Part shown: positions 7,692-41,894 of the stretch, piece after piece | Layout of the letters: the number at the start of each line of letters is the position of its first letter | Position numbering within the stretch: position 1 is the first letter of the stretch | DNA from: a virus | Direction: 5' to 3' (one strand) | UHGV virus genome: UHGV-1351770 | DNA length: 64,000 bases | The notes under the pieces: generated by a model | What the model was told of the DNA's origin: nothing | Databases searched by the model: none | Seen by the model: the letters and a program-made list of their open reading frames with translations, nothing else | Made by a program: the position numbers and the translations under genes

Positions 7692-8290
7692 GTGCAAATC
7701 CGACATTTGCTCCACGGGTTACGTGCTGGCGTGTATGTGCGAATCCGACAATTTTTGGTAGTGTGCAAATCCGACCAGAAAAATTTTTATAGTGTGCAGA
7801 TCCGACAATGAATTTTTCCAAAAACTCCAGCAATCCGATGCTGCGCATCAATCCTGTGGAATTAGCTAGAATATGTGCAGATCCGACATGAGTTTATTTG
7901 TGCGAATCCGACAAGATTTTTGTGACTTCGATTGGAGGGTGTGTGATTATGTGGGTTTGGGGAGAAGATGAGAGAGTGAGAGAAAATTAGGGGAACTGCG
8001 AGAGGGGCGCATGTTTGGTGCGGAGCACCTGATTTGCGGGGATTTTGGGGAAGATGTAAGATAATTTGGGAAGATTTGAGATTAGTGGAGATAAAGTAAA
8101 ATTTTATTAGCAAAATGGGGCAAAATAGCTTGACAAGTGAAAATTTCTGTGGCTCTAAAAACTCAGGCAATCATGGGCCTTCGGCCCGAAATAATGCTGC
8201 CATTTTCAGGAGATTATGTGTCCATGAAAACCTAGGCAATTGTGCAAATCCGACCAGTTTTTAAACTTATGTCAGTGTGCAAATCCGACA
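7692..8290 (+). repeat. Eight dispersed direct copies of 14-bp motif GTGC(A/G)(A/G)ATCCGAC(A/C) at irregular spacing
   Basis: Copies at 7692, 7737, 7764, 7794, 7876, 7900, 8242, 8277. Confidence 0.8.
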
Positions 8291-8333
8291 GCAATTTCCA
8301 GAAATGTGTTTTCAAAAAATGTTGTATAGAAAT

Positions 8334-8403
8334 AACCGCCCTCCCTATAACCGCCCTGTATTAACCGCCTATTGCTGAAGTTTCTAGGAACATGAAAACC
8401 GCC
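8334..8403 (+). repeat. Four copies of AACCGCC(T) at 8334, 8349, 8363, 8397
   Basis: Seen in sequence. Confidence 0.6.
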
Positions 8404-8777
8404 TGAGTTGACGAGAGTTTTCCTAAAAACTTAGGAGTCTACTAGAAAGTGTTGTGCCATCCTAGCAGATGAGCGGCAACCGGTGTATCATCTTGAACAC
8501 AGATATTGCCTTTAAATATTTTTAGTTATTTAAAAGTAAATATACCCCCATTTCATGAGAGTTAGCCCCTCTAGGCGCGTGCGATTTGATACATCCTCCT
8601 AAGTCTCGGTGTGGAAGAACAATTGACGAGAACCTGCGAGCAGAACCGTCATCAAGTGTTTTCCTACGAGGAATGATGTAAATCTACGGCCTAGAGGTAA
8701 AAACAAGTTGATGTTTTTAATCTATGAGATTATTATAACATACAGCTCAAATAATGTCAAGAATTTTTCGTTAACGT

Positions 8778-9503
8778 TTATACATCGTGATTGACTTTGA
8801 GTATGACTCCCTTCGATGCCATGAAAAGGAATGTTGCTAGGTAAGATGACTCGGAATTTAGCGCAGAATAATCTACACTTCCTCTAGGTCTAGTTTCTTG
8901 TTTAGTGTCAAGAATTGTTGATATATCAAACTTAACAGACTTAGCAACTTTTCTAGCTTGTTCAGGATCACGTAAAATTTCAAAGTGAGCAGCATCTAGA
9001 ATAGGGTTAGATGTTGTTGAGTCGTCAACTATACTTAGATGAACCTGCGCAAGTGTAGATACGATTCCTAGCTTTAATTCAGATAGAGAAGAATAAGGTG
9101 GTTCCACTTTCTTTGTAAGTCTAGGGAGATGATCGTATTTACATTGCTTTTGAGGAATCATCAGAATATTTGGATAACATTCTAGACAAGCCTTTGCATT
9201 TCCTTCTTTAAAATACGGGAGTTCTTTATCTGCAAAGACGTGGAATGAATCTGCTGAGAATCCTTTAATAGTAGGATCAACAGTTTGAATTAAACGACGT
9301 AAACTAATATAAGAAGGTGCTAGAGTAACTTCTCCTGCATCTTTATTATACTTGGGTTGCCCACTAGCATTAAGGTATGCAGGATAGAACTCTGCACAAA
9401 ATGCTACTGCATGTGCCTCTAACTCATTAAGCTGAGAAACACATTTCCCATTACAAGCTCTAGCTAACTTAATAATCTCTGCTAAATTCTTTTTAATACT
9501 CAT
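8778..9503 (-). CDS. Hypothetical protein (241 aa), last gene of AT-rich coupled operon
   Basis: ORF, ATGA overlap with upstream gene; AT-rich codon usage distinct from core genes. Confidence 0.6.
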   Translation of the reverse strand: MSIKKNLAEIIKLARACNGKCVSQLNELEAHAVAFCAEFYPAYLNASGQPKYNKDAGEVTLAPSYISLRRLIQTVDPTIKGFSADSFHVFADKELPYFKEGNAKACLECYPNILMIPQKQCKYDHLPRLTKKVEPPYSSLSELKLGIVSTLAQVHLSIVDDSTTSNPILDAAHFEILRDPEQARKVAKSVKFDISTILDTKQETRPRGSVDYSALNSESSYLATFLFMASKGVILKVNHDV

Positions 9504-30584: not shown

Positions 30585-30662
30585 TGGTCTCCGTGGGAGG
30601 ATTTGAACCCCCGACCCTATCGCCCCAAACGAAACGCTCTGGCCAAACTGAGCTACACGGAG
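30585..30662 (-). tRNA. tRNA-Pro (TGG)
   Basis: Manual fold; D-stem GCTC/GAGC, loop TTTGGGG with G37. Confidence 0.7.
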
Positions 30663-30666
30663 AATA

Positions 30667-30825
30667 TTATTTCTTCAACCACAACAAAGATAAGCCCAGC
30701 ATACTAAAGCCGCTAACTAATCCGATACATTTTTCTTCTATAGTAAAAGTATTTAGATTAAATGCTGTTATAGCTATTGGCACACACCATAATGCCATAA
30801 AAACTTGAGCTATCTTGTGTTTCAT
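30667..30825 (-). CDS. Small membrane protein (about 52 aa)
   Basis: ORF below cutoff; GAAGGAAAG RBS; hydrophobic. Confidence 0.35.
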   Translation of the reverse strand: MKHKIAQVFMALWCVPIAITAFNLNTFTIEEKCIGLVSGFSMLGLSLLWLKK

Positions 30826-31278
30826 TTTGCTTTCCTTCTCTTCACTTTATAAAATATATTATACAGAGAATTAGGCAGAATAGCAAATGAATTTTTAATA
30901 AATTTACTTATTGTGTAGGCCACCTGGAGGCTATGAACCCCACGGCTGACAAAGAAGTTTGCGAGACCTCTCTTAAATGCCAGAATAGACCCGCCGATCT
31001 ATCGGAACCTACATAATAAGTAAACTTTATAGTGTCATTCTAGACAGGACTCGAACCTGTTATCACTTGTGCGGACTTACGAGAACCATTCTTTCACTCG
31101 AATCGAACGAGCTTCTGCCCTCGCCAAGCTGGTTTCCCCATCAACCACGCTAGAATGTTTAATTGTTTTCAGTGCAAGAGTCCGAGTCTTGGACACGACC
31201 GCTTCGCAAGTACATAGGCAGCTTATCATGAGTCAGCACTTCCGAATTGCTAGCTCCGTGCTCTGCACTGAAATTTTG

Positions 31279-31626
31279 TTAATTTAATAGTAAAGTACGA
31301 TCTACTTCACCATTAATTGTTCGGCATTCTTCTGGGATTGCCGGAGTGGCCTTATATTCCCACCATTCAGAACCGTCGTATTCACCACGTTCTAACCAAG
31401 TTCCATCAGTAAACCACACGTTACCATAAAGCAATTGCCCACCGAAACCAGAATCATATTTAAAGTCTAGATTATTTAGAAAATCTTCAATATCTTTTTC
31501 TGTATAACCTATGGGTAATACCCAAACTTCTTTGTCCCCATAATAACCGAATTCTATCTTAATACACTTAACTTTAGAATTAATATTCTTTAGGGCAAGT
31601 AACAACTCTTCTTTAGCATTAATCAT
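31279..31626 (-). CDS. Hypothetical protein (115 aa)
   Basis: ORF. Confidence 0.45.
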   Translation of the reverse strand: MINAKEELLLALKNINSKVKCIKIEFGYYGDKEVWVLPIGYTEKDIEDFLNNLDFKYDSGFGGQLLYGNVWFTDGTWLERGEYDGSEWWEYKATPAIPEECRTINGEVDRTLLLN

Positions 31627-31652
31627 AGCATATTTCTCGTGCTAGTTTAGTT

Positions 31653-31729
31653 TGGCGCGACCGATGGGATTCGAACCCACATTCTCTCCCGTGACAGGGG
31701 AGTACCATTACCAAGCCAGCCCCGGTCGC
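31653..31729 (-). tRNA. tRNA-Asp (GTC)
   Basis: Manual fold; perfect acceptor GCGACCG/CGGTCGC; anticodon stem CTCCC/GGGAG, loop CTGTCAC. Confidence 0.8.
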
Positions 31730-31738
31730 ATAATTCAT

Positions 31739-31924
31739 TTACTCAGCTTTGAGTTTTTCAATAGCTGCATTAAGTTCCTTAAGAAACTCTTTTCGTACAT
31801 TAAGACGGTTGAGACTTACTAATATATCATGTTTAAGTTCTTCGATGTATTTCTTCTCAACTTCAATATTGTTGATAGTGCTATCACGATGAACTTCTAG
31901 CTGCGCAATTACATTCTTGGACAT
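31739..31924 (-). CDS. Hypothetical coiled-coil protein (61 aa)
   Basis: ORF. Confidence 0.35.
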   Translation of the reverse strand: MSKNVIAQLEVHRDSTINNIEVEKKYIEELKHDILVSLNRLNVRKEFLKELNAAIEKLKAE

Positions 31925-32026
31925 GCTTGTTTCCTCAGTTATTAATGAAAGTGGTATCTGTGGCTGAATTCGATGTCAGCAATGATAGCTGGTTGGCTAC
32001 CGGTTTACTTAACTCTACACAGAATT

Positions 32027-32109
32027 TGGCGGGCCGTGTAGGATTCGAACCTACGTTGTCTTTCGACATGGATTAACAGTCCACCGCCAAACCGCTTGGC
32101 TAACGACCC
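32027..32109 (-). tRNA. 83-nt tRNA with anticodon GTT (Asn codons), a 13-nt variable arm (GTC-GAAA-GAC hairpin) and G73
   Basis: Manual fold; D-stem GCCA/TGGC; anticodon stem GTGGA/TCCAT, loop CTGTTAA; perfect T-stem. Confidence 0.6.
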
Positions 32110-32261
32110 TAAATTTACATTGCTGACTAGGATTTTCACCTAGACGGAGTTAGCACCGTAGCGTGTAGCGGCATACCTCTCCAAACCGTGCCTCATCTTT
32201 CAATTACGGAGACAGTGTTCCTACGCGTGCCTGAATTGATTTAACAATTCTTTCAGCAAAT

Positions 32262-32337
32262 TGGACGACCGCATGAGATTTGAACTCACATAAAAAGGAT
32301 TTGCAATCCTTCGCCTAAGCCATTCAGCCAACGGTCG
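32262..32337 (-). tRNA. tRNA-Cys (GCA)
   Basis: Manual fold; anticodon stem AAGGA/TCCTT, loop TTGCAAA. Confidence 0.75.
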
Positions 32338-32386
32338 ATTTATCTTGTTCTGTCATGTTGCTTCTCCAGTTCAATTTATGTAATTA

Positions 32387-32695
32387 TTATACAGAACTTT
32401 TGGAAACTAAGCAACTACATTTTTTAAGAATTTGATGCCTTTCTTTTTTCTTCTTATATTTCCACGTTAATGGATTCTGTCGATTATAAACGCTTGAGAT
32501 CTTTGTCTCGTCAAAGTTCTTCAATATCATGTAATCACAGGATAATTGTTCTAGTGGAATGTGATCCCCGTCAAAAGCGTATACATAAGGCTGTTGACTA
32601 ACACGATAATGATAGACTTTGTTAATTCTACGTTTCAGCGACTTATCCGCGCAGTAAATAAAGAAGTTTTCAGGATGCATCAGCATCTCCTTCAA
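32387..32695 (-). CDS. Hypothetical basic protein (102 aa)
   Basis: ORF. Confidence 0.4.
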   Translation of the reverse strand: MKEMLMHPENFFIYCADKSLKRRINKVYHYRVSQQPYVYAFDGDHIPLEQLSCDYMILKNFDETKISSVYNRQNPLTWKYKKKKERHQILKKCSCLVSKSSV

Positions 32696-32697
32696 TT

Positions 32698-32772
32698 TGG
32701 TGCACCCTGTTCGTATCGAACGAACCTCTCAAGCTCTTCAGGCAAGCGCTAATCCATCTCAGCTAAAGGTGC
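32698..32772 (-). tRNA. tRNA, probable Phe (GAA); anticodon stem has two U-U mismatches
   Basis: Manual fold; good acceptor, D-stem and T-stem GTTCG/CGAAC; loop CTGAAGA. Confidence 0.5.
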
Positions 32773-32779
32773 AAATTTT

Positions 32780-32851
32780 TGGCAGGGGTAAAGGTATTCG
32801 AAACCTTTTCATGGGTTTTGGAGGCCCATTTGCAACCTATGCGTACCCCAA
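32780..32851 (-). tRNA. tRNA-Trp (CCA) with non-canonical short D-arm
   Basis: Manual fold; T-arm AAGGT-TTCGAAT-ACCTT; anticodon loop CTCCAAA. Confidence 0.5.
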
Positions 32852-32859
32852 TTATTAAT

Positions 32860-32934
32860 TGGCACACCCAACGAGGATCGAACTCGTGTTCCCACTGTGA
32901 AAGAGTGGTGTCCTAACCGCTAGACGATAGGTGC
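32860..32934 (-). tRNA. tRNA-Glu (TTC)
   Basis: Manual fold; anticodon stem CCACT/AGTGG, loop CTTTCAC; T-stem ACGAG/CTCGT. Confidence 0.75.
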
Positions 32935-32942
32935 ATTAAATT

Positions 32943-33030
32943 TGGTGGGCGTTAATGGAGTCGAACCACTCGAGTCGCAATGACCAGGGATTTACAATCC
33001 CCTCCGCTACCACTTACGGAATAAACGCCC
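32943..33030 (-). tRNA. tRNA-Tyr (GTA), class II
   Basis: Manual fold; acceptor GGGCGTT/AACGCCC, A73; loop TTGTAAA; 14-nt variable arm. Confidence 0.8.
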
Positions 33031-33158
33031 ATATTTAGAAGTATTCAAATACTAGTTTAAACACTTTTAAATATGTTTCCAAATTAGATAACTATTATAT
33101 CAAGTTTTAAGGCACTGAGCAAGTCAGATTTTGAAGAACTTGCTCAGTGCTGTATTAG

Positions 33159-33434
33159 TTAGTCGAATTTAGGAGTGACAGTTAAGGAGAACGGAAGTTC
33201 GAAAACCTCTTCACCCTCATTACTAACGGTAACTACACGACCTTTAAGTTCAGACATTGAAATATCAATATCAGCTTTTGCATCTGGAGCCATGCCAGCT
33301 TCAATACACTTAGCTTTAACTTCCGGTAAAAGCTCTACATTATAGAGATAAAGCCACTCAATCTCACCTTCCCAGTCTTCCCAGGATTTACAGATTGCAC
33401 TTTCAATACCAGTTGCTACAACACGATTTTGCAT
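33159..33434 (-). CDS. Hypothetical acidic protein (91 aa)
   Basis: ORF. Confidence 0.45.
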   Translation of the reverse strand: MQNRVVATGIESAICKSWEDWEGEIEWLYLYNVELLPEVKAKCIEAGMAPDAKADIDISMSELKGRVVTVSNEGEEVFELPFSLTVTPKFD

Positions 33435-33524
33435 TAGTTAATTCCTTCATCAATTTATATAACTATTATATCAGAAATTTAAAGTAAAAGGCAAGTACAT
33501 TTTTAAAAATTCTGTTTGGAGGAG

Positions 33525-33731
33525 CTAAACTCCAGATTCTTCGGCCAAGTCTAAACTAATAAGAGTTATAGCCATAATTGCCGCACCATGTTCTTTTTCT
33601 CCGGTGTTTTTAGCAGAGTCTATAATATCCTTAATCTGTTCGTAATAACTTTTTACTTCTTGTTCAATGCCTGCCTCGGCTATCATGCCTTTAGCCATGA
33701 ATCGTTGCATGGTAATTTCAGGATTAGCCAT
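33525..33731 (-). CDS. Hypothetical protein (68 aa)
   Basis: ORF. Confidence 0.4.
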   Translation of the reverse strand: MANPEITMQRFMAKGMIAEAGIEQEVKSYYEQIKDIIDSAKNTGEKEHGAAIMAITLISLDLAEESGV

Positions 33732-33891
33732 GTTGTTTCTCCAGTTTCATTTTTAATAGTTTACAGATGAAATCAACGTCTTCATCTGTGCCTAAGTCTC
33801 TATCCTCAAGGGTCGCCTTGAAGTTTTTCGTCAATTCCATGAGGATGACTTCCCTAGAACGACGTGTTGGAGGCGGAGGAGGTCTATACAT
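33724..33891 (-). CDS. Pro-rich small protein (55 aa)
   Basis: ORF below cutoff; AAGGAA RBS; coupled to downstream gene. Confidence 0.3.
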   Translation of the reverse strand: MYRPPPPPTRRSREVILMELTKNFKATLEDRDLGTDEDVDFICKLLKMKLEKQHG

Positions 33892-33905
33892 CTTAATTCC
33901 TTAAT

Positions 33906-33982
33906 TTGGTAGGGGTGGTGGGATTCGAACCCACAAAACCTGAATTTTAAGTCCAGTACCTATGCCAATTCGATTACACCCC
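33906..33982 (-). tRNA. 77-nt class I-type tRNA with anticodon TAA (Leu codons UUA/UUG) and A73, lacking the long variable arm of canonical tRNA-Leu
   Basis: Manual fold; perfect T-stem GTGGG/CCCAC; anticodon stem CTGGA/TTCAG, loop CTTAAAA; weak D-arm. Confidence 0.5.
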
Positions 33983-34084
33983 CATGTAATCAGTTTATTA
34001 GTTGATACATATTATAGCCTAGAGAAAACCCTACTACTAATCCTACGAACCAACCAATATAATAATCTTTTAGTTTCACAGGTA

Positions 34085-34270
34085 TTATCCTCGTTCAATA
34101 TCTAGGGAAATACCGCAGTTAGGATTAATACCTGTACCCTTGCAATTTGGGCAAACCCAGATATTGCAAAAAGTATCTCCTGCTTCTGCATCAGAACTTT
34201 CACCAATTCCCCTACACTCAGGGCAGGCACATTCTTCTAGCTCTTGCTTGAGTTCTTGAAACTTAGACAT
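34085..34270 (-). CDS. Zinc-ribbon protein (CPECRG..CPNCKG, 61 aa)
   Basis: ORF. Confidence 0.45.
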   Translation of the reverse strand: MSKFQELKQELEECACPECRGIGESSDAEAGDTFCNIWVCPNCKGTGINPNCGISLDIERG

Positions 34271-34279
34271 ATAGTCTCC

Positions 34280-34468
34280 TTAGTCAATTACTTTTGAGGC
34301 TTCAAGGTAGTCAATATAGTGTACGTTTTCTACCGTAATCATATAATCCGCCACTTTATCCATAGCTTGAGCTTCAGAGGTAGCTCTGACTAATCTATAT
34401 CCTTTTTTATATTCATCCGGGTATTCTCTATCTTGAATAAACACAACATAAACTATATATAGATCCAT
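34280..34468 (-). CDS. Hypothetical protein (62 aa)
   Basis: ORF. Confidence 0.4.
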   Translation of the reverse strand: MDLYIVYVVFIQDREYPDEYKKGYRLVRATSEAQAMDKVADYMITVENVHYIDYLEASKVID

Positions 34469-34486
34469 TTGTGACCTCTATTTAAT

Positions 34487-34564
34487 TGGTGGCTCCCCGA
34501 GGATTCGAACCTACGTACCTTCCGGTTATGAGCCGGGTGCTCATACCATATGAGCTTGAGAACC
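34487..34564 (-). tRNA. tRNA with CAT anticodon (third CAT species), weak T-stem
   Basis: Manual fold; acceptor GGTTCTC/GGGAGCC with 2 GU; perfect D-stem GCTC/GAGC; anticodon stem CCGG/CCGG, loop CTCATAA. Confidence 0.55.
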
Positions 34565-34570
34565 AAAATC

Positions 34571-34659
34571 TGGCGGAAGAAGTGGGAATCGAACCCACAA
34601 GGCTATATTTCAAACCGACAGATTAGCAATCTGCTGCAATACCATTATGCTATTCTTCC
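34571..34659 (-). tRNA. tRNA-Ser (GCT), class II
   Basis: Manual fold; acceptor GGAAGAA/TTCTTCC, G73; anticodon stem GCAGA/TCTGT, loop TTGCTAA; 19-nt variable arm. Confidence 0.75.
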
Positions 34660-34680
34660 GAATTTATAAGATATATTATA

Positions 34681-35202
34681 TTAGAAATTTAACTTCATAG
34701 CAAGAAAATTTTTCAAGTTTTCGGTAGACATCTCATCCACATCTACAGGAGAAACAAATCCATTTAATTGTCTAGCAAACTTTTCACCAGCAGGATCATT
34801 GTCCCCAACAGCTACCACTTTAAAAGGTAGTAATTTCAGTTGCTTTAATAACGCTTTTCCTGGAGAAGAGCCCAACATTGCCAGGGCTGGATAACCAGCA
34901 TTATGTAACGCAACTGCCTTAAATACAGATTCAGCGATCAATACTACTTTTTCATCTCCATTGAGAGTTTCTAGTCCCCATACACACTGGGTAGTAGAAT
35001 AAGTAAAGTATTTAGCTTCAAAGGGGCACTTACCATGACCTTTTGGAGCAGAAGGATTATAAGTTTGATAGCCCCTCAACATCCCAGAGAAGTCATACAA
35101 CGGGACTGTTAGCCATCCCTCCGGACTTAACCAGCAATGATATTTATCTGTATCAAACCCTCTAGATAAGAGGTGCTGTGTTAGCTCATCAACATTCATA
35201 TC
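34681..35202 (-). CDS. Stand-alone Toprim-domain protein (VVAVGDNDPAGEKFARQL), 173 aa
   Basis: Toprim DxD motif in translation; start set at MNVDEL directly after promoter/leader TATAAT..ATAAATTTGAGAGAGGAATCAGAT. Confidence 0.5.
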   Translation of the reverse strand, partial: DMNVDELTQHLLSRGFDTDKYHCWLSPEGWLTVPLYDFSGMLRGYQTYNPSAPKGHGKCPFEAKYFTYSTTQCVWGLETLNGDEKVVLIAESVFKAVALHNAGYPALAMLGSSPGKALLKQLKLLPFKVVAVGDNDPAGEKFARQLNGFVSPVDVDEMSTENLKNFLAMKLNF

Positions 35203-35229
35203 TGATTCCTCTCTCAAATTTATAGATAT

Positions 35230-35258
35230 ATTATACAGAGAATTTAGCATTCAAGCAA
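35230..35258 (-). promoter_or_regulatory. Early promoter (minus): -35 TTGCTT, 17 bp, -10 TATAAT
   Basis: Seen in sequence. Confidence 0.6.
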
Positions 35259-35464
35259 TCAAATTTTTTAACTTTTAGAGGAAAATCATATGGCACTTAA
35301 GGGTAGCAGATAAGTGGTGAGGACCAAAATTTGTGACCCCACTAAAAATCCGGGGGCAATTTTTAAAGACCCCTTGACATTTTCGCGGGGGTAGTGTAAA
35401 GTATATGTTATGGATGAGTGATCAAAGAGACACACATTTTCTATATACTAGGAGGTGTCAAAAA

Positions 35465-36451
35465 ATGACAGAAGAAGTAGCTAAGAGTCCTGAGACCGTC
35501 GCTAGCGTTGCAGCAGAACTGCACCGTCACGAGGAATCAGATAAGAAAAAGTGGGAGAAGGTCAGAGCCTACGAAGAAAAACATCGTGAACACGATGATG
35601 AAGAAGATGACGATGATGAGCATTGTCATAAATATGGAAAACATAAAATGCAAGAACCAGTAAACGTATTCACTAGTGGCTTCCCTGGCCTACTGGGTGG
35701 TTACCCAGCAAACGCAGGTGCTTTCGGTGGGGAAGGTATGGGTCTATTCGGAGCTATCCTAATCGGTGCTCTATTAACAGGCGGATTCGGTGGTTTCGGT
35801 GGATTCGGTGGACGTGGTGTAGTTGGTGAAGGTACCGCAGTTGATGCAGTACTTCAGAACCAAGATACCGCTAGTATTCTAGCAGCTATTAATACTACTC
35901 GTACAGAAGCTAACCAGGGTACTGGAGCTGTTTTAAGCGCAGTTAACAATGGTTTTAGCCAGACATCCCAAAACCAGAGCCGTGATACTCAGTCTGTACT
36001 AACTACGATCTATGGTACAGGTGCTAATCTGTCTAATCAGATCTGCCAGGAAACTCGCAACGTTATTCAGGGTCAGTTCGATCTTTCTCGCCAGATTGAT
36101 CAATCTTTCGCAGCTAACCAGATAGCTCGTGCACAAGATAAGTTTGATTCTGCACAGATCGCTTTCCAGCAGACTTTACAAACTAATAACCAGTTTGCCG
36201 CTGTTCAGGCTCAGATGTGTGCTAACCAGAACTCTCTGGAACGTCAGATTGCTGAATGTTGCTGTGAACTTCAGACTGCGATCGCTGGTGTAACTACTGC
36301 GCGTATCCAGGATGAGTTAGATGCATGTCGCCTACGTGAAGCAATCGCTGCAGGTAGCGGTGCTAACGGTCAGGTAATTAATCAAATCGCTTTAAGTCTT
36401 GGTGCTATCACTCAGACTCTGGCTGGTCTGCAGGCTAAACTGCCTGCTTAA
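35465..36451 (+). CDS. Acidic N-terminus, hydrophobic glycine-zipper segment (GGFGGFGGFGG), Q/N/S/T-rich repetitive C-terminal protein (328 aa)
   Basis: ORF; start moved to ATG 35465 with AGGAGGTG RBS; low-complexity composition seen in translation. Confidence 0.6.
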   Translation: MTEEVAKSPETVASVAAELHRHEESDKKKWEKVRAYEEKHREHDDEEDDDDEHCHKYGKHKMQEPVNVFTSGFPGLLGGYPANAGAFGGEGMGLFGAILIGALLTGGFGGFGGFGGRGVVGEGTAVDAVLQNQDTASILAAINTTRTEANQGTGAVLSAVNNGFSQTSQNQSRDTQSVLTTIYGTGANLSNQICQETRNVIQGQFDLSRQIDQSFAANQIARAQDKFDSAQIAFQQTLQTNNQFAAVQAQMCANQNSLERQIAECCCELQTAIAGVTTARIQDELDACRLREAIAAGSGANGQVINQIALSLGAITQTLAGLQAKLPA

Positions 36452-36472
36452 TATTAAGGGGAGGAGCCCATT

Positions 36473-36889
36473 ATGAGTAAATATGGTTTTGTAAATAACG
36501 GACTTAATCAAAGTATGGGCTCCCAGCAGCCCATTCCGGGTCTGGATAACCCCTACTTACAACAATTGCAACAGCGTTTAGCAGAAGCGCAACAGATGCA
36601 GCAACAACTCCAGCAAAACCCTGGAAGTGTGAGTCCTATGCAAATGATGCAGCAAATGGGCGGGCAGTCGCAAATGCCTCAACAAATGCAGCAACAGGTG
36701 CCGCAGCAGCAAGTTCAGCAACAAACCCAACAACCGCAGGTTTCTGCGGAAGGACAGGCAGTACTAGCCCTTTTCGAAGACTTCGCAAAGACAGAGGATG
36801 GGAAACAGCTTGTATCACTTATGGGTAAGTTTAATAGCTTCTGCCAAAGCCAGGTTGCAAAAGCTCAAAATGGTGGTAATAACTCCTAA
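36473..36889 (+). CDS. Gln-rich protein (138 aa; QQMQQQVPQQQVQQQTQQPQ)
   Basis: ORF with GGGGAGGAG RBS. Confidence 0.55.
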   Translation: MSKYGFVNNGLNQSMGSQQPIPGLDNPYLQQLQQRLAEAQQMQQQLQQNPGSVSPMQMMQQMGGQSQMPQQMQQQVPQQQVQQQTQQPQVSAEGQAVLALFEDFAKTEDGKQLVSLMGKFNSFCQSQVAKAQNGGNNS

Positions 36890-36898
36890 GGAGGAATT

Positions 36899-37093
36899 AT
36901 GTGTTGCAGAAAATCTGTTTCGTGCTGCCCAATGCCTGTAGCACGTTGTTGCTCTCCAGCAATGTTTACGCAAATACCGGCGTTCAATCCGTTTGCCTTT
37001 AAGCCTACTCTTATCCTGCCCCCTAGAGTAGATTTTCAGTCAAGATTGGCCTCCCGTATGGGTGGTTGCTGTAATAAGAGTATATGGTTCTAA
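36899..37093 (+). CDS. Cys-rich small protein (64 aa; CC..CC..CC..CC)
   Basis: ORF with AGGAGGAA RBS 1 codon after upstream stop. Confidence 0.45.
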   Translation: MCCRKSVSCCPMPVARCCSPAMFTQIPAFNPFAFKPTLILPPRVDFQSRLASRMGGCCNKSIWF

Positions 37094-37107
37094 AGAACCA
37101 AACAATA

Positions 37108-37145
37108 AAGCCCCTAGTCGAAAGACTTAGGGGCTTTTCTTTTAT
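37108..37145 (+). terminator. Rho-independent terminator (AAGCCCCTAG..CTTAGGGGCTT plus TTTCTTTT)
   Basis: Seen in sequence. Confidence 0.7.
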
Positions 37146-37150
37146 CTTAA

Positions 37151-37189
37151 ATACAGAAAAGCCCTGCGCTCTCCAGGGAACGCAGGGCT
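37151..37189 (-). terminator. Rho-independent terminator for minus strand (AGCCCTGCG..CGCAGGGCT, U-run in minus transcript)
   Basis: Seen in sequence; convergent with plus-strand terminator. Confidence 0.65.
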
Positions 37190-37213
37190 TACTTCAGATG
37201 TTACGTGCGGATA

Positions 37214-38172
37214 TTATTTATTACGCATATCCATAATCATTTGGCCATCATAGCCAGTACCTACCACAGTCTGTGGTACACCACCTTGATATTTCTGAGC
37301 ACGAATCATTTCAACTTCCAATTGCTTCCAACGAATCATTTCAGGAGTAATAGTACGTTGCAGTGCGGCGTTAGCTTCAGCTTCTTTCTTAGCTGCGTAC
37401 AGTTTAGCGTCTGCGTCACGTTCATTAGCAATAGCTTGGTTGTTGCGAGCTTCACGGTCTGCTTCTGCCTGTTTAACTTTTGCTGTGCTTCTTGTTCAAC
37501 ACGAGCAAGTTCAGCTTTCGCAGCATTAACTTGCTCTTCACGAACTTTGGTATTCTGTACCTGTTCCATGATTACTGGAGGCAGGGTAATATCCTGAAGA
37601 AACACCTGCTTAACTGTGTAACCATATGGGCGTGCATACTCTTCAACTTCCTGTTGAATTGCAGTTTGCAATTGAGCCTGAATTTTAGCATCAAACAAAT
37701 CTTGTGCTTTTGGTACAGACTTACCAAACTCACGAATAGTAGACAGTAATTTTTCAGTTACATACTTGTCTAGTGCCTGATCCTGAGTACCTGCGTTAAT
37801 ACGGTTAATCGGTGCCTTAGAACCATCAAACTGCAACATAACAGTCAGGTCAACAGTGGATTTAAACTTATCCTGGCTAGGAACCTGAAGTTTATCTAAT
37901 TTTACAGCAATATCTTTTGTACTAAAAGTATCGAAAGATGCAAACGGGTTTACAAGATGGAAACCAGGCAATACTGGATTAGGATCTACTTTACCCAGGA
38001 ATGTTTGGGTTTTAACCGTACCATCAGAAACAATAGTATATGAATTAAAAGCTAGAATCAAGCCTGCTAAACCAACTACAGCACCAACTACAGCACCAAT
38101 ACCCCAACGTTTAATAGTACGAATTACTTTCTGCTCAGAAGTCAGTTCTTTCATATTTTTAGTATTAAACAT
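37214..38172 (-). pseudogene. SPFH / band-7 (HflK/HflC-prohibitin-like) membrane protein gene interrupted by a -1 frameshift in an A4 run (plus T-run 37477-37480)
   Basis: N-terminal 239 aa in one frame (TM plus SPFH-like), C-terminal roughly 85 aa continue cleanly in another frame down to stop at 37214-37216. Confidence 0.6.
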
Positions 38173-38206
38173 ATGTTTCCTTTGTTTTAGTTACAGTTAA
38201 TAAAAT

Positions 38207-38281
38207 TGGCCGAGGTGACAGGATTCGAACCTGCATAAAGAAATTTAGAAGACTCCTGCCTCTCCCTTAGACTACACCCCG
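38207..38281 (-). tRNA. tRNA-Arg (TCT)
   Basis: Manual fold; T-stem GCAGG/CCTGT; anticodon stem GGAGT/ATTTC with GU pairs, loop CTTCTAA. Confidence 0.6.
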
Positions 38282-39084
38282 TTTAGGCATTTTTAAGAAC
38301 TCTTATAAAAGCTCTTAAAGATACCCGACGGTAGGTAGGGTTAGCCCCCTCAGATTAAGCTCTGCAGCCCTTCCGTCAGACAATATCTTCCAGTTTAAGT
38401 CAGGGTGACTTAGTGGTTATGTCCTGCGGTATATTGAGGACTCGGTTAGGCTTGGGGTCATGACTTCCCACCTTTTGCTGCTACTCAACAGGAGTTATCG
38501 CGAATTACCTGTGCTATTGTGCACCATTAGTGACATCTCTCATGTCAGCATTTCCCACTTTGTGGATAGCTTGAAAAACTACTCCGATATGGAGAAAGAA
38601 CTTCACTACCCTAGAATACCTTCTAAAGTTCTTCTTTAGCCTGGACATAGTTAAATCGTAATAAAACTATTCAGCAGACTGGTTGGTTAGTCTGGAACCA
38701 ACTACCGCGTGGTTTAGGCAGTGCGCAACTAACCTCGGAAGCTTTTACGTTAAAAGCATCAGTTATCCAGTTCTTACCGACCGTAGTATTCGAACCTACA
38801 TCTTCCACCAGTTACGGCTTGATAATACCAATTATACTAGGACGGCAGTGTTACTACATAAGTGATTTCCACACCCCACTATTTATAAATTAGAGAAGAG
38901 TTTAGGGGAGAGGTTTCAGACGCCTCATTTTACACGTTTTAGCCACTAACCGGGATTGCCGCCCCCTGTGTACTAGTTTTACAACTAACCCACCGACTCT
39001 ATTCAACGAATCTTAGTGCTCGACGCATCTTACATTAAGACAAGTTCAGCGTAATCGGCTCGCTGTTCCCTAATTTATGAATAT

Positions 39085-39113
39085 ATTATACAGAATTTAA
39101 AGGCATTTAGCAA
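39085..39113 (-). promoter_or_regulatory. Early promoter (minus): TTGCTA-17-TATAAT
   Basis: Seen in sequence. Confidence 0.65.
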
Positions 39114-39121
39114 ATAAATTT

Positions 39122-39565
39122 TTAATTAAATTCGCCAGCAATCTGAGCAGCAGTACCACCATCATAACGCCCAGAAAATTCTTCCTTAATCGCTTTCATC
39201 AGCATACCCTTTGTAATTCCAGGGTTTAGCTTAACTAATTCTGCAAAGTATTTACGAATCTCAGTATCAGATAACTGAGGAGGCAGATACTCCTGCAACC
39301 ACTTATTTAGAATGTATTCATACTGAGCAGACTGTAAGCTATAGCTATCAAGATCTCGACCATGAAGTTTAGCTTTCATCTGGTTAATGCTTTTTAGTTG
39401 AGCTTTGAGATAAGACACAAATTGTTCAGAAGTGATGAAATCTTTATCAATACGCTGAAGATCCCCGATTATGGTCTGGTAGCTTTTAGCGACTTCTTTA
39501 TCAGAACCATTAAACTTAGAATCCTGCAAAGCTCTACGCAAAACATCTAAAATATTCTCTTCCAT
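39122..39565 (-). CDS. GatB/YqeY-domain-like protein (147 aa)
   Basis: Weak C-terminal similarity pattern to YqeY family; mostly inference. Confidence 0.35.
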   Translation of the reverse strand: MEENILDVLRRALQDSKFNGSDKEVAKSYQTIIGDLQRIDKDFITSEQFVSYLKAQLKSINQMKAKLHGRDLDSYSLQSAQYEYILNKWLQEYLPPQLSDTEIRKYFAELVKLNPGITKGMLMKAIKEEFSGRYDGGTAAQIAGEFN

Positions 39566-39735
39566 TATTTCATTCCTAACGCTTGGTTAAAAGATTGTTC
39601 TGTCATAACTGCTGAGACTTTGGCGAAATCAAACTTTTTAGGGTTAGTAGTAATTTCAGCCACGTTAGATGTTTTAACAGTTTTCGTAGTACGAATACCG
39701 CGAGTGTTAACACCAATAATTACAACTGATTTCAT
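39565..39735 (-). CDS. Hypothetical protein (57 aa)
   Basis: ORF below cutoff; GAGAGGAAG RBS; TAATG coupling to downstream gene. Confidence 0.35.
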   Translation of the reverse strand: MKSVVIIGVNTRGIRTTKTVKTSNVAEITTNPKKFDFAKVSAVMTEQSFNQALGMK

Positions 39736-39803
39736 ATTTCGCTTCCTCTCATTAGTTTATGGAAGTATTATACAGAAATTTAAGTATTTAAGCAAGTAAA
39801 TTT

Positions 39804-40271
39804 TTAAGTTTTAGTGACAACAGGTTTATAAAACGTATGTCCCTTAATCTTAGTTGTTTTCTTAAATTTCTTTGTCCAGTAAGGTTTATCTTTACCACTA
39901 TGGAAGTATAGTGCTCCATGTGTAGGATCTTGTGGTAAATCAACGTAGTATATCACTCTAGCTAAATTCTTAGCGGTTTGCCAAGCCTCATCGGTTTTAT
40001 CAACTTTTGGTCTCTTAGATACCCAAGAGAACTGGTTAGACTGATATACTACTTTACAGTAGGAATCTGGGAATTTACCGGAGTTTACACGGTTTTTAGT
40101 AACATGTGCAATCGCCGTCATTCCCTTTATGCCCTCACCACGACTCTCGAAATAGATATTTTTAGCAATGCAATCTATTTCTTTTGCATCGTGCGATGCC
40201 TGACTACTAAAGCTGAAGGTAAGGGCAGCTACTAAAAGCAAAGCTGCCTTCATTCTTTTTACTCCTGCCAA
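39804..40271 (-). CDS. Cell-wall hydrolase, SleB/CwlJ family (signal peptide; FESRGEG..THGALYFH motifs)
   Basis: Motifs seen in translation. Confidence 0.55.
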   Translation of the reverse strand: MAGVKRMKAALLLVAALTFSFSSQASHDAKEIDCIAKNIYFESRGEGIKGMTAIAHVTKNRVNSGKFPDSYCKVVYQSNQFSWVSKRPKVDKTDEAWQTAKNLARVIYYVDLPQDPTHGALYFHSGKDKPYWTKKFKKTTKIKGHTFYKPVVTKT

Positions 40272-40576
40272 TCATATTCAACACGATTGGGATTTTCTTT
40301 ATACCCTAAGTCAAGCAAATCATTACGCATATTTTGCTTAGCTACTGGGTTCGAGGTTACTAGTACCACTTTCTTTGGTCTCTGCCCAAATTCTAAGAGT
40401 AAACGAAGAATTTGATAACCTTCCATACCGTCTACAGCCAAGTCATTATCCATATAAACGAAATGGCCTGTGGTATCAGTTTTATTCAGAAACTCTACAG
40501 CGGCTTCTGGGGTTCGAATGATAATGTCCATTCCGTGAAGATTACGCACATCATCAATCAAAATATGAAAAGTCAT
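40259..40576 (-). CDS. CheY-like receiver-domain protein (single domain, 105 aa)
   Basis: ILIDDV..FVYMDNDLAVDGMEGYQILRLL..KVVLVTS pattern matches response-regulator receiver fold. Confidence 0.45.
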   Translation of the reverse strand: MTFHILIDDVRNLHGMDIIIRTPEAAVEFLNKTDTTGHFVYMDNDLAVDGMEGYQILRLLLEFGQRPKKVVLVTSNPVAKQNMRNDLLDLGYKENPNRVEYDWQE

Positions 40577-41019
40577 AATAGCCTCGTTTCATCAATTTAA
40601 AAAATATATTATACATATAATTTAGTAGATTAGCAAATACATTTTTAAATTGTGAAACTAGTAAACCGATAAACAGCCTAGAGGCGCCACAGGCCATATC
40701 TTATGAGCCATGTACCTTTGATCTAGGGTTTGAATCATCAACGAATACTTTGCATCTTTTAGCTTTAGAAGTTTAGAAGTTTGAGTTCTTTAAACTTTTC
40801 AGCTTTCATACTTAAATGTTGATCTTTGAAGTTGTGTCGGTAATATCAACGACGCTTTGTTCTTACGTATCAGCTTAAAAGGCTGGTGTAATAAACATAA
40901 TCTCCAATAGATTATACTTTATAGTATGGTCAGCGGTCTTATTTAACCTCGTATTTCAACCGCTGCTGCGAGGTAAGATGCTTGGGCTTTCGTCTACCGA
41001 TTTACTAGCTTTTAACTTA

Positions 41020-41658
41020 TTATTCTACTTCAATGAAAGTAGAGGCGTTAGACTCGGACAGAACAAAGTCAACATTTGTTGCAAAGTCCTGGTATTCCTC
41101 GTCATGCTGCTTAATCAGCTTCTCCAGTTCCAGAGGATCAATCAAGAATGGAGTATTCTTGAGTTCCAGCAGGTTGAGCTGCATTTTAACTTCATCTTCG
41201 GAAGTTTTCTTATCGCGGGTAGCCATGCTATCCTGCAAACGCTCATATTTAGCATCAAACTGTGCTTTCTGCGTATTAAACTTAACCGTAGCGGCATGGA
41301 ACTGCTTACGCATGTTAGCCAGCAGTTGGGCTTTAAGTTCCATAGAACGCTTAGCTTCAATTGCTTCCGCAACAGTCATTTTACGAGAACCGATCTCAAC
41401 TATTGTTTCTGCATTGCTCTTAATCAGAGCAGATTTGATACTATCACGCTTAGACATCATATCCAGCAGAGATTGGAAATCAGTCTTAATACGGGTAGAC
41501 AGGGCATCTACTTCGATTGCAGCGCCAACTACAACCTGGTTTTTATCCTTACCTTCACCAACAGCGATCAGAAGCTGCTGTTCAGTAGCTTTACGGATTT
41601 TAGCTTCCAGAGATTTGATGGTTGCCAGAGCGCGAGTTTTAGAAATACGAGTAGTCAT
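41020..41658 (-). CDS. Hypothetical alpha-helical / coiled-coil protein (212 aa)
   Basis: ORF with AAGGAAG RBS; two plus-strand ORFs of similar length overlap it and are judged shadows. Confidence 0.5.
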   Translation of the reverse strand: MTTRISKTRALATIKSLEAKIRKATEQQLLIAVGEGKDKNQVVVGAAIEVDALSTRIKTDFQSLLDMMSKRDSIKSALIKSNAETIVEIGSRKMTVAEAIEAKRSMELKAQLLANMRKQFHAATVKFNTQKAQFDAKYERLQDSMATRDKKTSEDEVKMQLNLLELKNTPFLIDPLELEKLIKQHDEEYQDFATNVDFVLSESNASTFIEVE

Positions 41659-41711
41659 TATTTGCTTCCTTATATGAAGTTTGAGATTTGAATTTGTTTA
41701 AATTTGGTCTG

Positions 41712-41894
41712 TTACAGACCAATTGCCAGCAGAGTGCGCAGAACAGTATCGTTACTGTTATCAATTTTAGGATTAGCACGATTTAGCAGATCAAAGATTT
41801 TCTGGATACCTGATTGACGTTCAGCCATACGACGGATACCCAGATTACGAGTAGCTTTCTTACCATTTTTACGAACATTTTTAGATACTGGCAT
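41712..41894 (-). CDS. Small basic protein (60 aa)
   Basis: ORF. Confidence 0.4.
   Translation of the reverse strand: MPVSKNVRKNGKKATRNLGIRRMAERQSGIQKIFDLLNRANPKIDNSNDTVLRTLLAIGL

Follow-up and report, generated by a model that had tools for sequence, protein, structure and literature searches.

The 64,000-nucleotide (nt) stretch of DNA analysed here, UHGV virus genome UHGV-1351770 (referred to as the window), comes from a T5-like phage (Tequintavirus). Between positions 35374 and 37145 it carries a rightward operon of three open reading frames (ORFs), which we call the cassette. The minus strand holds 41 of the 58 window ORFs of at least 100 amino acids (aa), and all neighbours of the cassette lie on that strand. 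This agrees with a preliminary description of the locus, which had noted a rightward island amid leftward genes. The three plus-strand genes with strong ribosome-binding sites that it listed were likewise recovered from the ORF calls and the sequence. The cassette consists of the following features.

35374..35402, plus strand: sigma-70 promoter corresponding to T5 P12, with the -35 hexamer TTGACA at 35374-79, a 17-nt spacer and the -10 hexamer TAAAGT at 35397-402
35403..35464, plus strand: 5' leader, containing the Shine-Dalgarno sequence AGGAGG at 35450-55
35465-36451, plus strand: ORF1, 328 aa, 34.8 kDa, homologue of T5.077, phrog_8119
36473-36889, plus strand: ORF2, 138 aa, homologue of T5.078, phrog_7894
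36899-37093, plus strand: ORF3, 64 aa, homologue of T5.079
37107..37145, plus strand: intrinsic terminator, a GC-rich hairpin (37107-37137) with a GAAA loop, followed by UUUUCUUUU

Operon structure and correspondence to T5

The genes are separated by gaps of 21 nt (ORF1-ORF2) and 9 nt (ORF2-ORF3). Each is preceded by a strong Shine-Dalgarno sequence, for ORF1 the one in the leader, for ORF2 GGGGAGGAG at about 36457-66 and for ORF3 GGAGG at 36890-94. The 1.9-kb region matches 241 phage records and is 98-99% identical to BUCT632 and SSP1. The island is the gene set T5.077-T5.078-T5.079 of phage T5 (alias T5p075-077). The proteins are direct orthologues, with identities from 81% (ORF1) to 100% (ORF3), and gene order is identical; promoter P12, the bidirectional terminator, the nearby nick site and the SPFH gene all correspond, and there are no substantive differences. 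The T5 record already lists the three hypothetical proteins, promoter P12, the terminator, the major nick site and the convergent SPFH/Band_7 gene T5.080. The genes and signals are thus not new, having been annotated previously in T5; the preliminary description overlooked this annotation and the location of the genes within the T5 st0 deletion. The T5 homologues are annotated as hypothetical only, with no known structural or early function assigned, and the literature searched made no mention of T5.077-079 or T5p075-077 by name.

The promoter matches the consensus at 10 of 12 positions in our scan. Promoter-like sites in the region do not exceed chance (2 found, 7.5 expected), and support for the promoter comes from its position, its conservation and the T5 annotation. 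Among 21 relatives with up to 20% divergence elsewhere, neither hexamer varies and the spacer keeps its length, and the separate promoter with TTGACA described earlier coincides with the annotated P12. The discriminator that follows the -10 hexamer, ATATG, agrees at four of five positions with ATATT, a motif reported to be common to all known T5 early promoters (PMC7472727). This suggests that the operon is likely to be expressed early. The 5' leader is also nearly invariant, with about three variable positions over the same relatives. Its predicted fold is insignificant (z = -1.37), and the constraint on it may stem from the promoter discriminator and the sequence downstream of it, or from control of translation. 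At the other end of the operon, the terminator hairpin and U-tract fold with a free energy of -20.2 kcal/mol (z = -5.4), and none of 200 shuffled sequences folds as well. In relatives the inner stem is inverted or replaced with pairing preserved, and the T5 record calls the element an efficient bidirectional rho-independent terminator. The strong terminator of the preliminary description is therefore upheld by folding, by structure-preserving variants and by annotation. An Rfam scan of the operon found no RNA family.

The GC content of the cassette is 46-47%, compared to 39% for the window. All three ORFs are under purifying selection, as judged from the ratio of nonsynonymous to synonymous change (pN/pS) against relatives. 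Codon usage close to that of highly expressed E. coli genes had been claimed for the island as a whole, and this holds for ORF1 only. Across the 58 long ORFs of the window the frequency of optimal E. coli codons has a mean of 0.48 (standard deviation 0.076); ORF1, at 0.66, ranks third, whereas ORF2 (0.47) and ORF3 (0.44) are average. The third-highest value in the window suggests that ORF1 is an abundant protein.

The three encoded proteins

ORF1 opens with an acidic region, residues 1-62 containing 20 D/E, 12 K/R and 7 H. A Gly-rich hydrophobic segment of the Gly-zipper type follows at residues 91-116 (GMGLFGAILIGALLTGGFGGFGGFGG, 46% Gly), and residues 117-328, in which A, Q, T and N are abundant, include CCCE at 265-268. 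This composition is as the preliminary description had given it, with an acidic N-terminus, a glycine-zipper segment and a repetitive low-complexity region with CCCE. Structure prediction by AlphaFold2 on a 94-sequence alignment gave a mean predicted local distance difference test score (pLDDT) of 69; in this model residues 9-45 and 134-169 form helices and residues 175-325 one single helix. With a shallow alignment the model was poor (pLDDT 49). The N-terminal charged helix, residues 9-45, is confidently predicted and holds VAAEL..HE.SDKK, of which the motif VAAEL..HE..DKK is kept in all ORF1s of the cassette type. The acidic/His-rich stretch after this helix is poorly conserved, and a conserved EPVNVFTNGFPG motif stands before the Gly-rich segment. 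Beyond that segment about 200 residues are predicted to be helical, and we refer to this part as the rod. Four cysteines in it, C252 and C265-267 (…CANQN…IAECCCE…), are invariant in the cassette-type family. ORF1 also contains GLFGAI, which we take to be the hexapeptide with which the HA2 fusion peptide begins. Against relatives the pN/pS of ORF1 is 0.15-0.25, and its length differs by whole codons among the 21 relatives. The start codon, judged from the Shine-Dalgarno sequence before it, is the ATG at 35465. The Bas32 record instead uses the ATG at 35405; we rejected this start, which has no Shine-Dalgarno sequence and coincides with the predicted transcription start or falls just before it.

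Gln accounts for 27.5% of ORF2 and for 41% of its residues 16-96, in keeping with the Gln-rich protein described earlier. Two parts of ORF2 are conserved, a helix at the N-terminus (YLQQLQQRLAEAQ) and a C-terminal domain (EGQAVLALFEEFAKTEDGKQLVS.MGKFNSFCQ) that contains a single invariant Cys; between them lies a variable Gln/Pro-rich spacer. In the versions from an N4-like phage, a lambdoid phage and a further background (L036, see below), the spacer is Pro-rich and of other lengths, and the two flanking segments are conserved. The prion-like composition noted earlier is thus not what is retained in ORF2; the Gln tract is swapped for Pro-rich sequence and the flanks are conserved instead. The pN/pS is 0.16-0.23, and length again differs by whole codons among the 21 relatives. 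Several GenBank relatives carry ORF2 misannotated as "cAMP-dependent protein kinase catalytic subunit".

ORF3 encodes a basic (isoelectric point 9.3), Pro/Ser-rich peptide with eight cysteines arranged, as previously noted, in four CC doublets. Its pN/pS is 0.29 in frame compared to 1.2-1.6 in the other two frames, and its length is exactly 195 nt in the 21 relatives. In every cassette examined, ORF2 is followed by a counterpart of ORF3 that is 49-91 aa long and has a GGAGG-type ribosome-binding site of its own. This selection pattern, the conservation of length and the distant counterparts establish ORF3 as a real gene. Of seven cassette versions compared, six begin with Met-Cys-Cys, and the seventh, from the lambdoid phage, with MSCNCGCG. 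The versions share a second CC pair, an NPF motif and a Pro/Ser-rich basic composition with almost no acidic residues. ORF3 is annotated in T5 and Bas32, and is omitted or called in the wrong frame in most GenBank records. The 33-aa frame annotated instead in SSP1 was rejected, with a pN/pS of 1.56 against 0.29 for the 64-aa frame. Synonymous divergence (pS) in ORF3 is about half that in ORF1 and ORF2 against a relative in our set (L026; 0.20 compared to 0.43-0.46), and against T5 it is 0.05 compared to 0.32. An additional constraint at the nucleotide level, or a boundary of recombination, may lie behind this difference.

Scans of all three proteins against Pfam, NCBIfam and PADLOC returned only sub-threshold noise (for example RIFIN and Granulin), and PADLOC-DB gave no match at E <= 0.1 for any of them. 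PHROGs offered families of unknown function only. An ORF2 profile found no relatives in the PDB, and a Foldseek search of the ORF1 model against the PDB and BFVD gave vimentin-like coiled coils at E > 1 or random matches. A profile search with ORF3 recovered three called proteins and no outside relatives. The earlier view of a self-contained operon that fits no described family agrees with these Pfam, NCBIfam, PADLOC, PDB and PHROGs searches, and its reading as an "undescribed system" is reasonable.

Distribution of the cassette and relatives of ORF1

Phage morons are autonomous accessory transcription units, such as bor and lom of lambda and gp15 of HK97. The trio ORF1-ORF2-ORF3 recurs in at least five unrelated phage backgrounds, the T5-like one included. 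Two distant Demerecviridae-like contigs (L028 and L029) carry it with an ORF1 identity of 36-45%. In an N4-like phage (L034) the trio lies beside the gene for the giant virion RNA polymerase. A lambdoid phage (L035) has it between the antiterminator Q and holin genes in opposite orientation, a classic moron site. In a 62-kb Pseudomonas phage with Mu-like head genes (L030 and MK443266, the latter L004) terminators bracket the cassette, and the trio is present in a further, distinct background (L036). In the lambdoid phage two more plus-strand genes (169 aa and 143 aa; 7751-8978) stand after the trio and before a terminator at 8984-9011, and may be additional cargo.

ORF1 is present in 223 phage records, compared to about 443 records with an NrdA at least 80% identical to that of the window; roughly half of T5-like genomes therefore have the cassette. 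The T5 st0 deletion (33667-41891) spans it, and T5st0 is routinely used as an infectious phage. The mutant T5Mos is also viable, and its deletion (30661-38625) takes out P12 and the 5' part of T5.077 (PMC11464382). Since both deletion mutants are viable, the cassette is dispensable in laboratory hosts. In the part of dataset S01 of PMC13250531 available to us, the gene rows for phage Bas33 jump from about 68.9 kb to a holin-sized gene at 76.3 kb, and no cassette homologues were found in the RNA-seq and proteome rows in that part. As far as this portion of the dataset goes, Bas33 probably lacks most of the tRNA region naturally, and the cassette with it.

Collectively, these results identify the cassette as an autonomous, horizontally mobile accessory operon, that is, a moron, on every operational count: it has its own promoter and terminator, it is patchy and dispensable, it sits in unrelated backgrounds and its GC content deviates. 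It resembles known morons further in its placement against local transcription and its presence or absence in close relatives. It differs from them in having three co-conserved genes rather than one, in occurring mainly in virulent phages, with no prophage copies found in representative bacterial genomes, and in a cargo without known homologue. The moron is a known type of element; what is new is the type of cargo and the recurrence of the trio across backgrounds.

ORF1 also has relatives outside the cassette. An exhaustive profile search returned 523 cluster representatives at E <= 1e-3 and 126 at E <= 1e-10, most of them belonging to phrog_16490. Members of phrog_16490 come from crAss-like phages as well as from a Bacteroides phage and from a virus with Methanomassiliicoccales as its predicted hosts, and crAss-like phages account for most of the ORF1 superfamily as a whole. 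The crAss-like phrog_16490 proteins are true distant homologues of ORF1, with a common VF(T/P)NG motif, a GGFGGFGGFGG segment, a helical rod, ECCCE(L/N) and a C-terminal LQAK. They differ in lacking the charged N-terminal domain and in having P/Y/G-rich, sometimes Cys-rich, C-terminal tails. No ORF2- or ORF3-like partners were found near the crAss-type and archaeal-virus-type homologues. The N-terminal domain of ORF1 is thus present where ORF2 and ORF3 are and absent where they are not, which suggests that the partners dock on that domain. In crAss-like cr4_1 the ORF1 homologue stands right after holin and endolysin genes, and in another locus (L006) after holin-like small membrane proteins; both lie near virion genes.

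Members of phrog_16490 are labelled "spike protein/glycoprotein" or "outer capsid protein/viral fiber", labels that most likely reflect weak coiled-coil similarity. The superfamily profile, which is dominated by crAss-like sequences, matched the fusion-peptide/long-helix region of influenza HA2 at E = 0.005 with an accuracy of 0.65. A profile of cassette-type ORF1s had no match in the PDB, HA2 included. The HA2 match, and a coiled-coil match of the superfamily profile to PspA, are weak; they were judged compositional and rejected. ORF1 is like class I fusion proteins such as HA2 in having a Gly-rich hydrophobic peptide (GLFGAI…) and then a long Asn/Gln/Thr-rich helix. It differs from them in lacking a C-terminal membrane anchor, and the resemblance is most likely compositional. 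Some ORF1-type proteins that occur alone (P0027, P0037, P0064 and P0095 of the superfamily) end in Cys/Gly-rich tails (…CCNQYSNCGCGCNG, …CGGCGCCNNGAWL). These resemble the N-terminus of the lambdoid ORF3 (MSCNCGCGG…; 7444-7719 of L035), and the rod C-terminus and ORF3 may be related by gene fusion or fission.

Beyond the cassette terminator, the window continues with the following features.

37150-37190: leftward terminator hairpin of the SPFH gene, holding GCGC at 37156-59
37214-38172, minus strand: convergent SPFH gene, homologue of T5.080, with a Band_7 match at E = 4e-20
38210-38281: tRNA-Arg
38775-38846, minus strand: tRNA-like match below threshold (25.1 bits against a gathering score of 29)

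The position of the GCGC corresponds to the "major DNA single-chain interruption" annotated in T5 at 39746-47, the 32.6% nick. The tRNA-like match falls where the stable T5 "RNAX" corresponds, just beyond tRNA-Arg. The SPFH gene also has a 12-nt in-frame insertion near 38088-38099.

A possible membrane complex and competing explanations

The features described above suggest to us, with moderate confidence, that the cassette encodes one complex held at the inner membrane through the Gly-zipper of an abundant ORF1. In the arrangement we propose, the three products would form a single membrane-associated complex made early in infection, with ORF1 anchored through its short hydrophobic segment. 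The rod of about 200 helical residues, with its invariant C-x12-CCC cluster, would measure about 20 nm or more if extended. ORF2 and ORF3 would dock on the N-terminal domain, whose charged helix is found only in the cassette-type subfamily. ORF2 would act as a soluble adaptor, its two conserved ends joined by a flexible Gln/Pro spacer, and ORF3 as a tiny basic Met-Cys-Cys peptide. Invariant cysteines are present in all three proteins; those of ORF3, with those of ORF1 and ORF2, could bind metal, or tether or cross-link the complex. Such a complex might modify or guard the host envelope during infection, so as to shut out competing phages or to counteract a host defence that acts at the membrane.

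The full reading, a moron encoding an early membrane-associated three-protein complex that acts in envelope-level competition or counter-defence, is speculative, and we offer it tentatively, at less than even odds. We rank the envelope role first because of the moron behaviour, the strong early-type expression signals, the patchy distribution and the membrane association; replication, lysis proper and virion structure are less likely roles. Membrane proteins that act in superinfection exclusion (Sie) include Imm and Sp of T4, Llp of T5 and Sie2009 of lactococcal phages; Imm, Sp and Llp are made early, and Sie2009 is expressed from a prophage. The trio is like these proteins in being non-essential, putatively membrane-located and patchy. 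It differs in having three components and no sequence or fold similarity to them, and the PHROGs and Pfam scans linked none of the three to known Sie proteins.

Several observations weigh against this reading. The hydrophobic core of ORF1 is short (10-20 residues), and its best 19-residue Kyte-Doolittle hydropathy, 1.72 here, falls to 1.2-1.3 in several homologues of the cassette type. As read from the sequence, ORF2 and ORF3 contain neither signal peptides nor transmembrane segments. The Pfam, NCBIfam, PADLOC, PDB and Foldseek searches supplied no homology evidence for function, and two scans of 185,579 GTDB species-representative genomes found no prophage copies, unlike typical lysogen-protecting exclusion morons. 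Over 94 sequences the K+R residues flanking the hydrophobic segment number 35 on the N-terminal side and 71 on the C-terminal side, which slightly favours a cytoplasmic rod, and a cytoplasmic rod would weaken a model of exclusion that faces the periplasm. The charged N-terminal domain of about 90 residues, on the other hand, argues for a cytoplasmic N-terminus. If the rod is periplasmic, its four invariant cysteines would form disulfides and, at about 22 nm per 150 helical residues by our own estimate, it could span the periplasm, so that an entry-blocking or envelope-bridging role would fit. If it is cytoplasmic, the Cys clusters would point to metal binding or to acyl/thiol chemistry on a membrane-tethered scaffold.

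The latter topology leads to an alternative in which a scaffold tethered to the membrane faces the cytoplasm. With Cys clusters that bind metals or thiols, it would provide organisation at the membrane, for instance of a phage factory, of a condensate or of a host factor that it sequesters, or it would take up or sequester a metal or a redox molecule. This would account for the excess of K+R on the C-terminal side of the hydrophobic segment, and for invariant Cys in ORF2 and ORF3, which have no export signals. The His/Asp/Glu-rich stretch in ORF1 also fits, as do the Cys/Gly-rich tails in the superfamily (…CCNQYSNCGCGCNG), whose likeness to the start of the lambdoid ORF3 suggests that ORF3 acts at the end of the rod. 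This arrangement, however, requires either that the charged N-terminal domain pass through the membrane or that the anchor be monotopic. The acidic/His tract shows little conservation, and there is no match to known metal-binding families in Pfam or NCBIfam. We consider a scaffold of this kind unlikely.

A role in lysis, as an accessory or spanin-like fusogen or as a tuner of lysis timing, was also considered. ORF1 would be an inner-membrane coiled coil that reaches the outer membrane, and ORF3 would resemble an o-spanin. Like lambda Rz/Rz1, the cassette encodes a putative membrane anchor with a long helical rod, then a small Pro-rich, Cys-containing partner in an adjoining gene, and has conserved cysteines. 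Its lambdoid copy abuts the holin gene, and the distant homologues in cr4_1 and L006 follow lysis-type genes. An i-spanin has an N-terminal transmembrane domain and then a periplasmic coiled coil. ORF1 may or may not follow this layout: it has one hydrophobic segment and then a long predicted helix, but about 90 charged residues stand before the segment and its hydrophobicity is borderline in several homologues. The cassette further differs from Rz/Rz1 by its extra Gln-rich middle gene, its early-type promoter and its site outside the lysis cassette; in T5-like Bas32 the annotated i-spanin, o-spanin, holin and endolysin lie about 15-20 kb away. No ORF3 version has a signal peptide or lipobox as read from the sequence, and deletion mutants that lack the cassette propagate normally. 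The weak HA2 match of the superfamily profile would suit a fusogen, as would GLFGAI in ORF1, but the accuracy of the match is low (0.65) and it is gone when the profile is restricted to cassette-type sequences. A lysis function of this type thus appears distinctly unlikely.

The preliminary description favoured a membrane-active, toxin-like module that works with the convergent SPFH protein, which we now regard as highly improbable. A Gly-zipper combined with a Cys-rich peptide is compatible with membrane activity, and in T5-like phages the SPFH gene lies directly downstream on the other strand. The neighbour is, however, confined to T5-like phages, and no SPFH gene stands beside the trio in six other loci (L028, L029, L030, L034, L035 and L036), so the proposed link does not hold. 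The gene is also frameshifted in the window, as had been noted, with the cassette itself intact: compared with T5 and SSP1, an A-run near 37481 lacks one nucleotide, which leaves ORFs of 278 and 41 aa and reflects either a real pseudogene or a homopolymer sequencing error. There was no match in PADLOC or to toxin families, and the codon usage of ORF1 points to an abundant structural component and not to a potent toxin.

Least probable of all is a virion-associated fibre or decoration protein, for which the labels of the distant crAss-like homologues and the nearness of virion genes in cr4_1 and L006 might speak, since those labels are based on weak coiled-coil similarity, the T5 operon belongs to the early/tRNA region, where it occupies the opposite strand and has a promoter of the early type, T5st0 virions are infectious without these genes, and T5 structural proteins are encoded by a late gene cluster elsewhere in the genome (PMC8624392).

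Returning to the membrane complex, a bolder version is conceivable, though we hold it to be a long shot. The trio would be the founding example of a hitherto undescribed phage membrane machine, in which a flexible adaptor and an "MCC" peptide join a coiled-coil rod that bears a CCC cluster and stems from a superfamily found in Crassvirales, Demerecviridae and other phages. The two cysteines at the N-terminus of the peptide, next to basic residues (MCCRK…), would be S-acylated or metal-loaded and would clamp the complex to the membrane. If this were true, either a bacterial virus would have its own equivalent of dual-palmitoylation anchors, or the clamp would belong to a new type of fusogenic or exclusion device directed at the Gram-negative envelope.

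Although T5 is a classical model, it carries a strongly signalled, probably abundant operon without assigned function. The present analysis turns three hypothetical proteins into a defined, testable module that is shared by virulent and temperate-type phages and is tied to a superfamily of more than 500 clusters that figures prominently in crAss-like phages of the human gut. ORF3 is a clear example of a short Cys-rich gene that is routinely missed by gene callers. If the module governs envelope-level competition between phages, or counters membrane-acting immunity, the misleading "spike", "fiber" and "kinase" labels in databases would be corrected, and it would represent a new class in the phage accessory repertoire.

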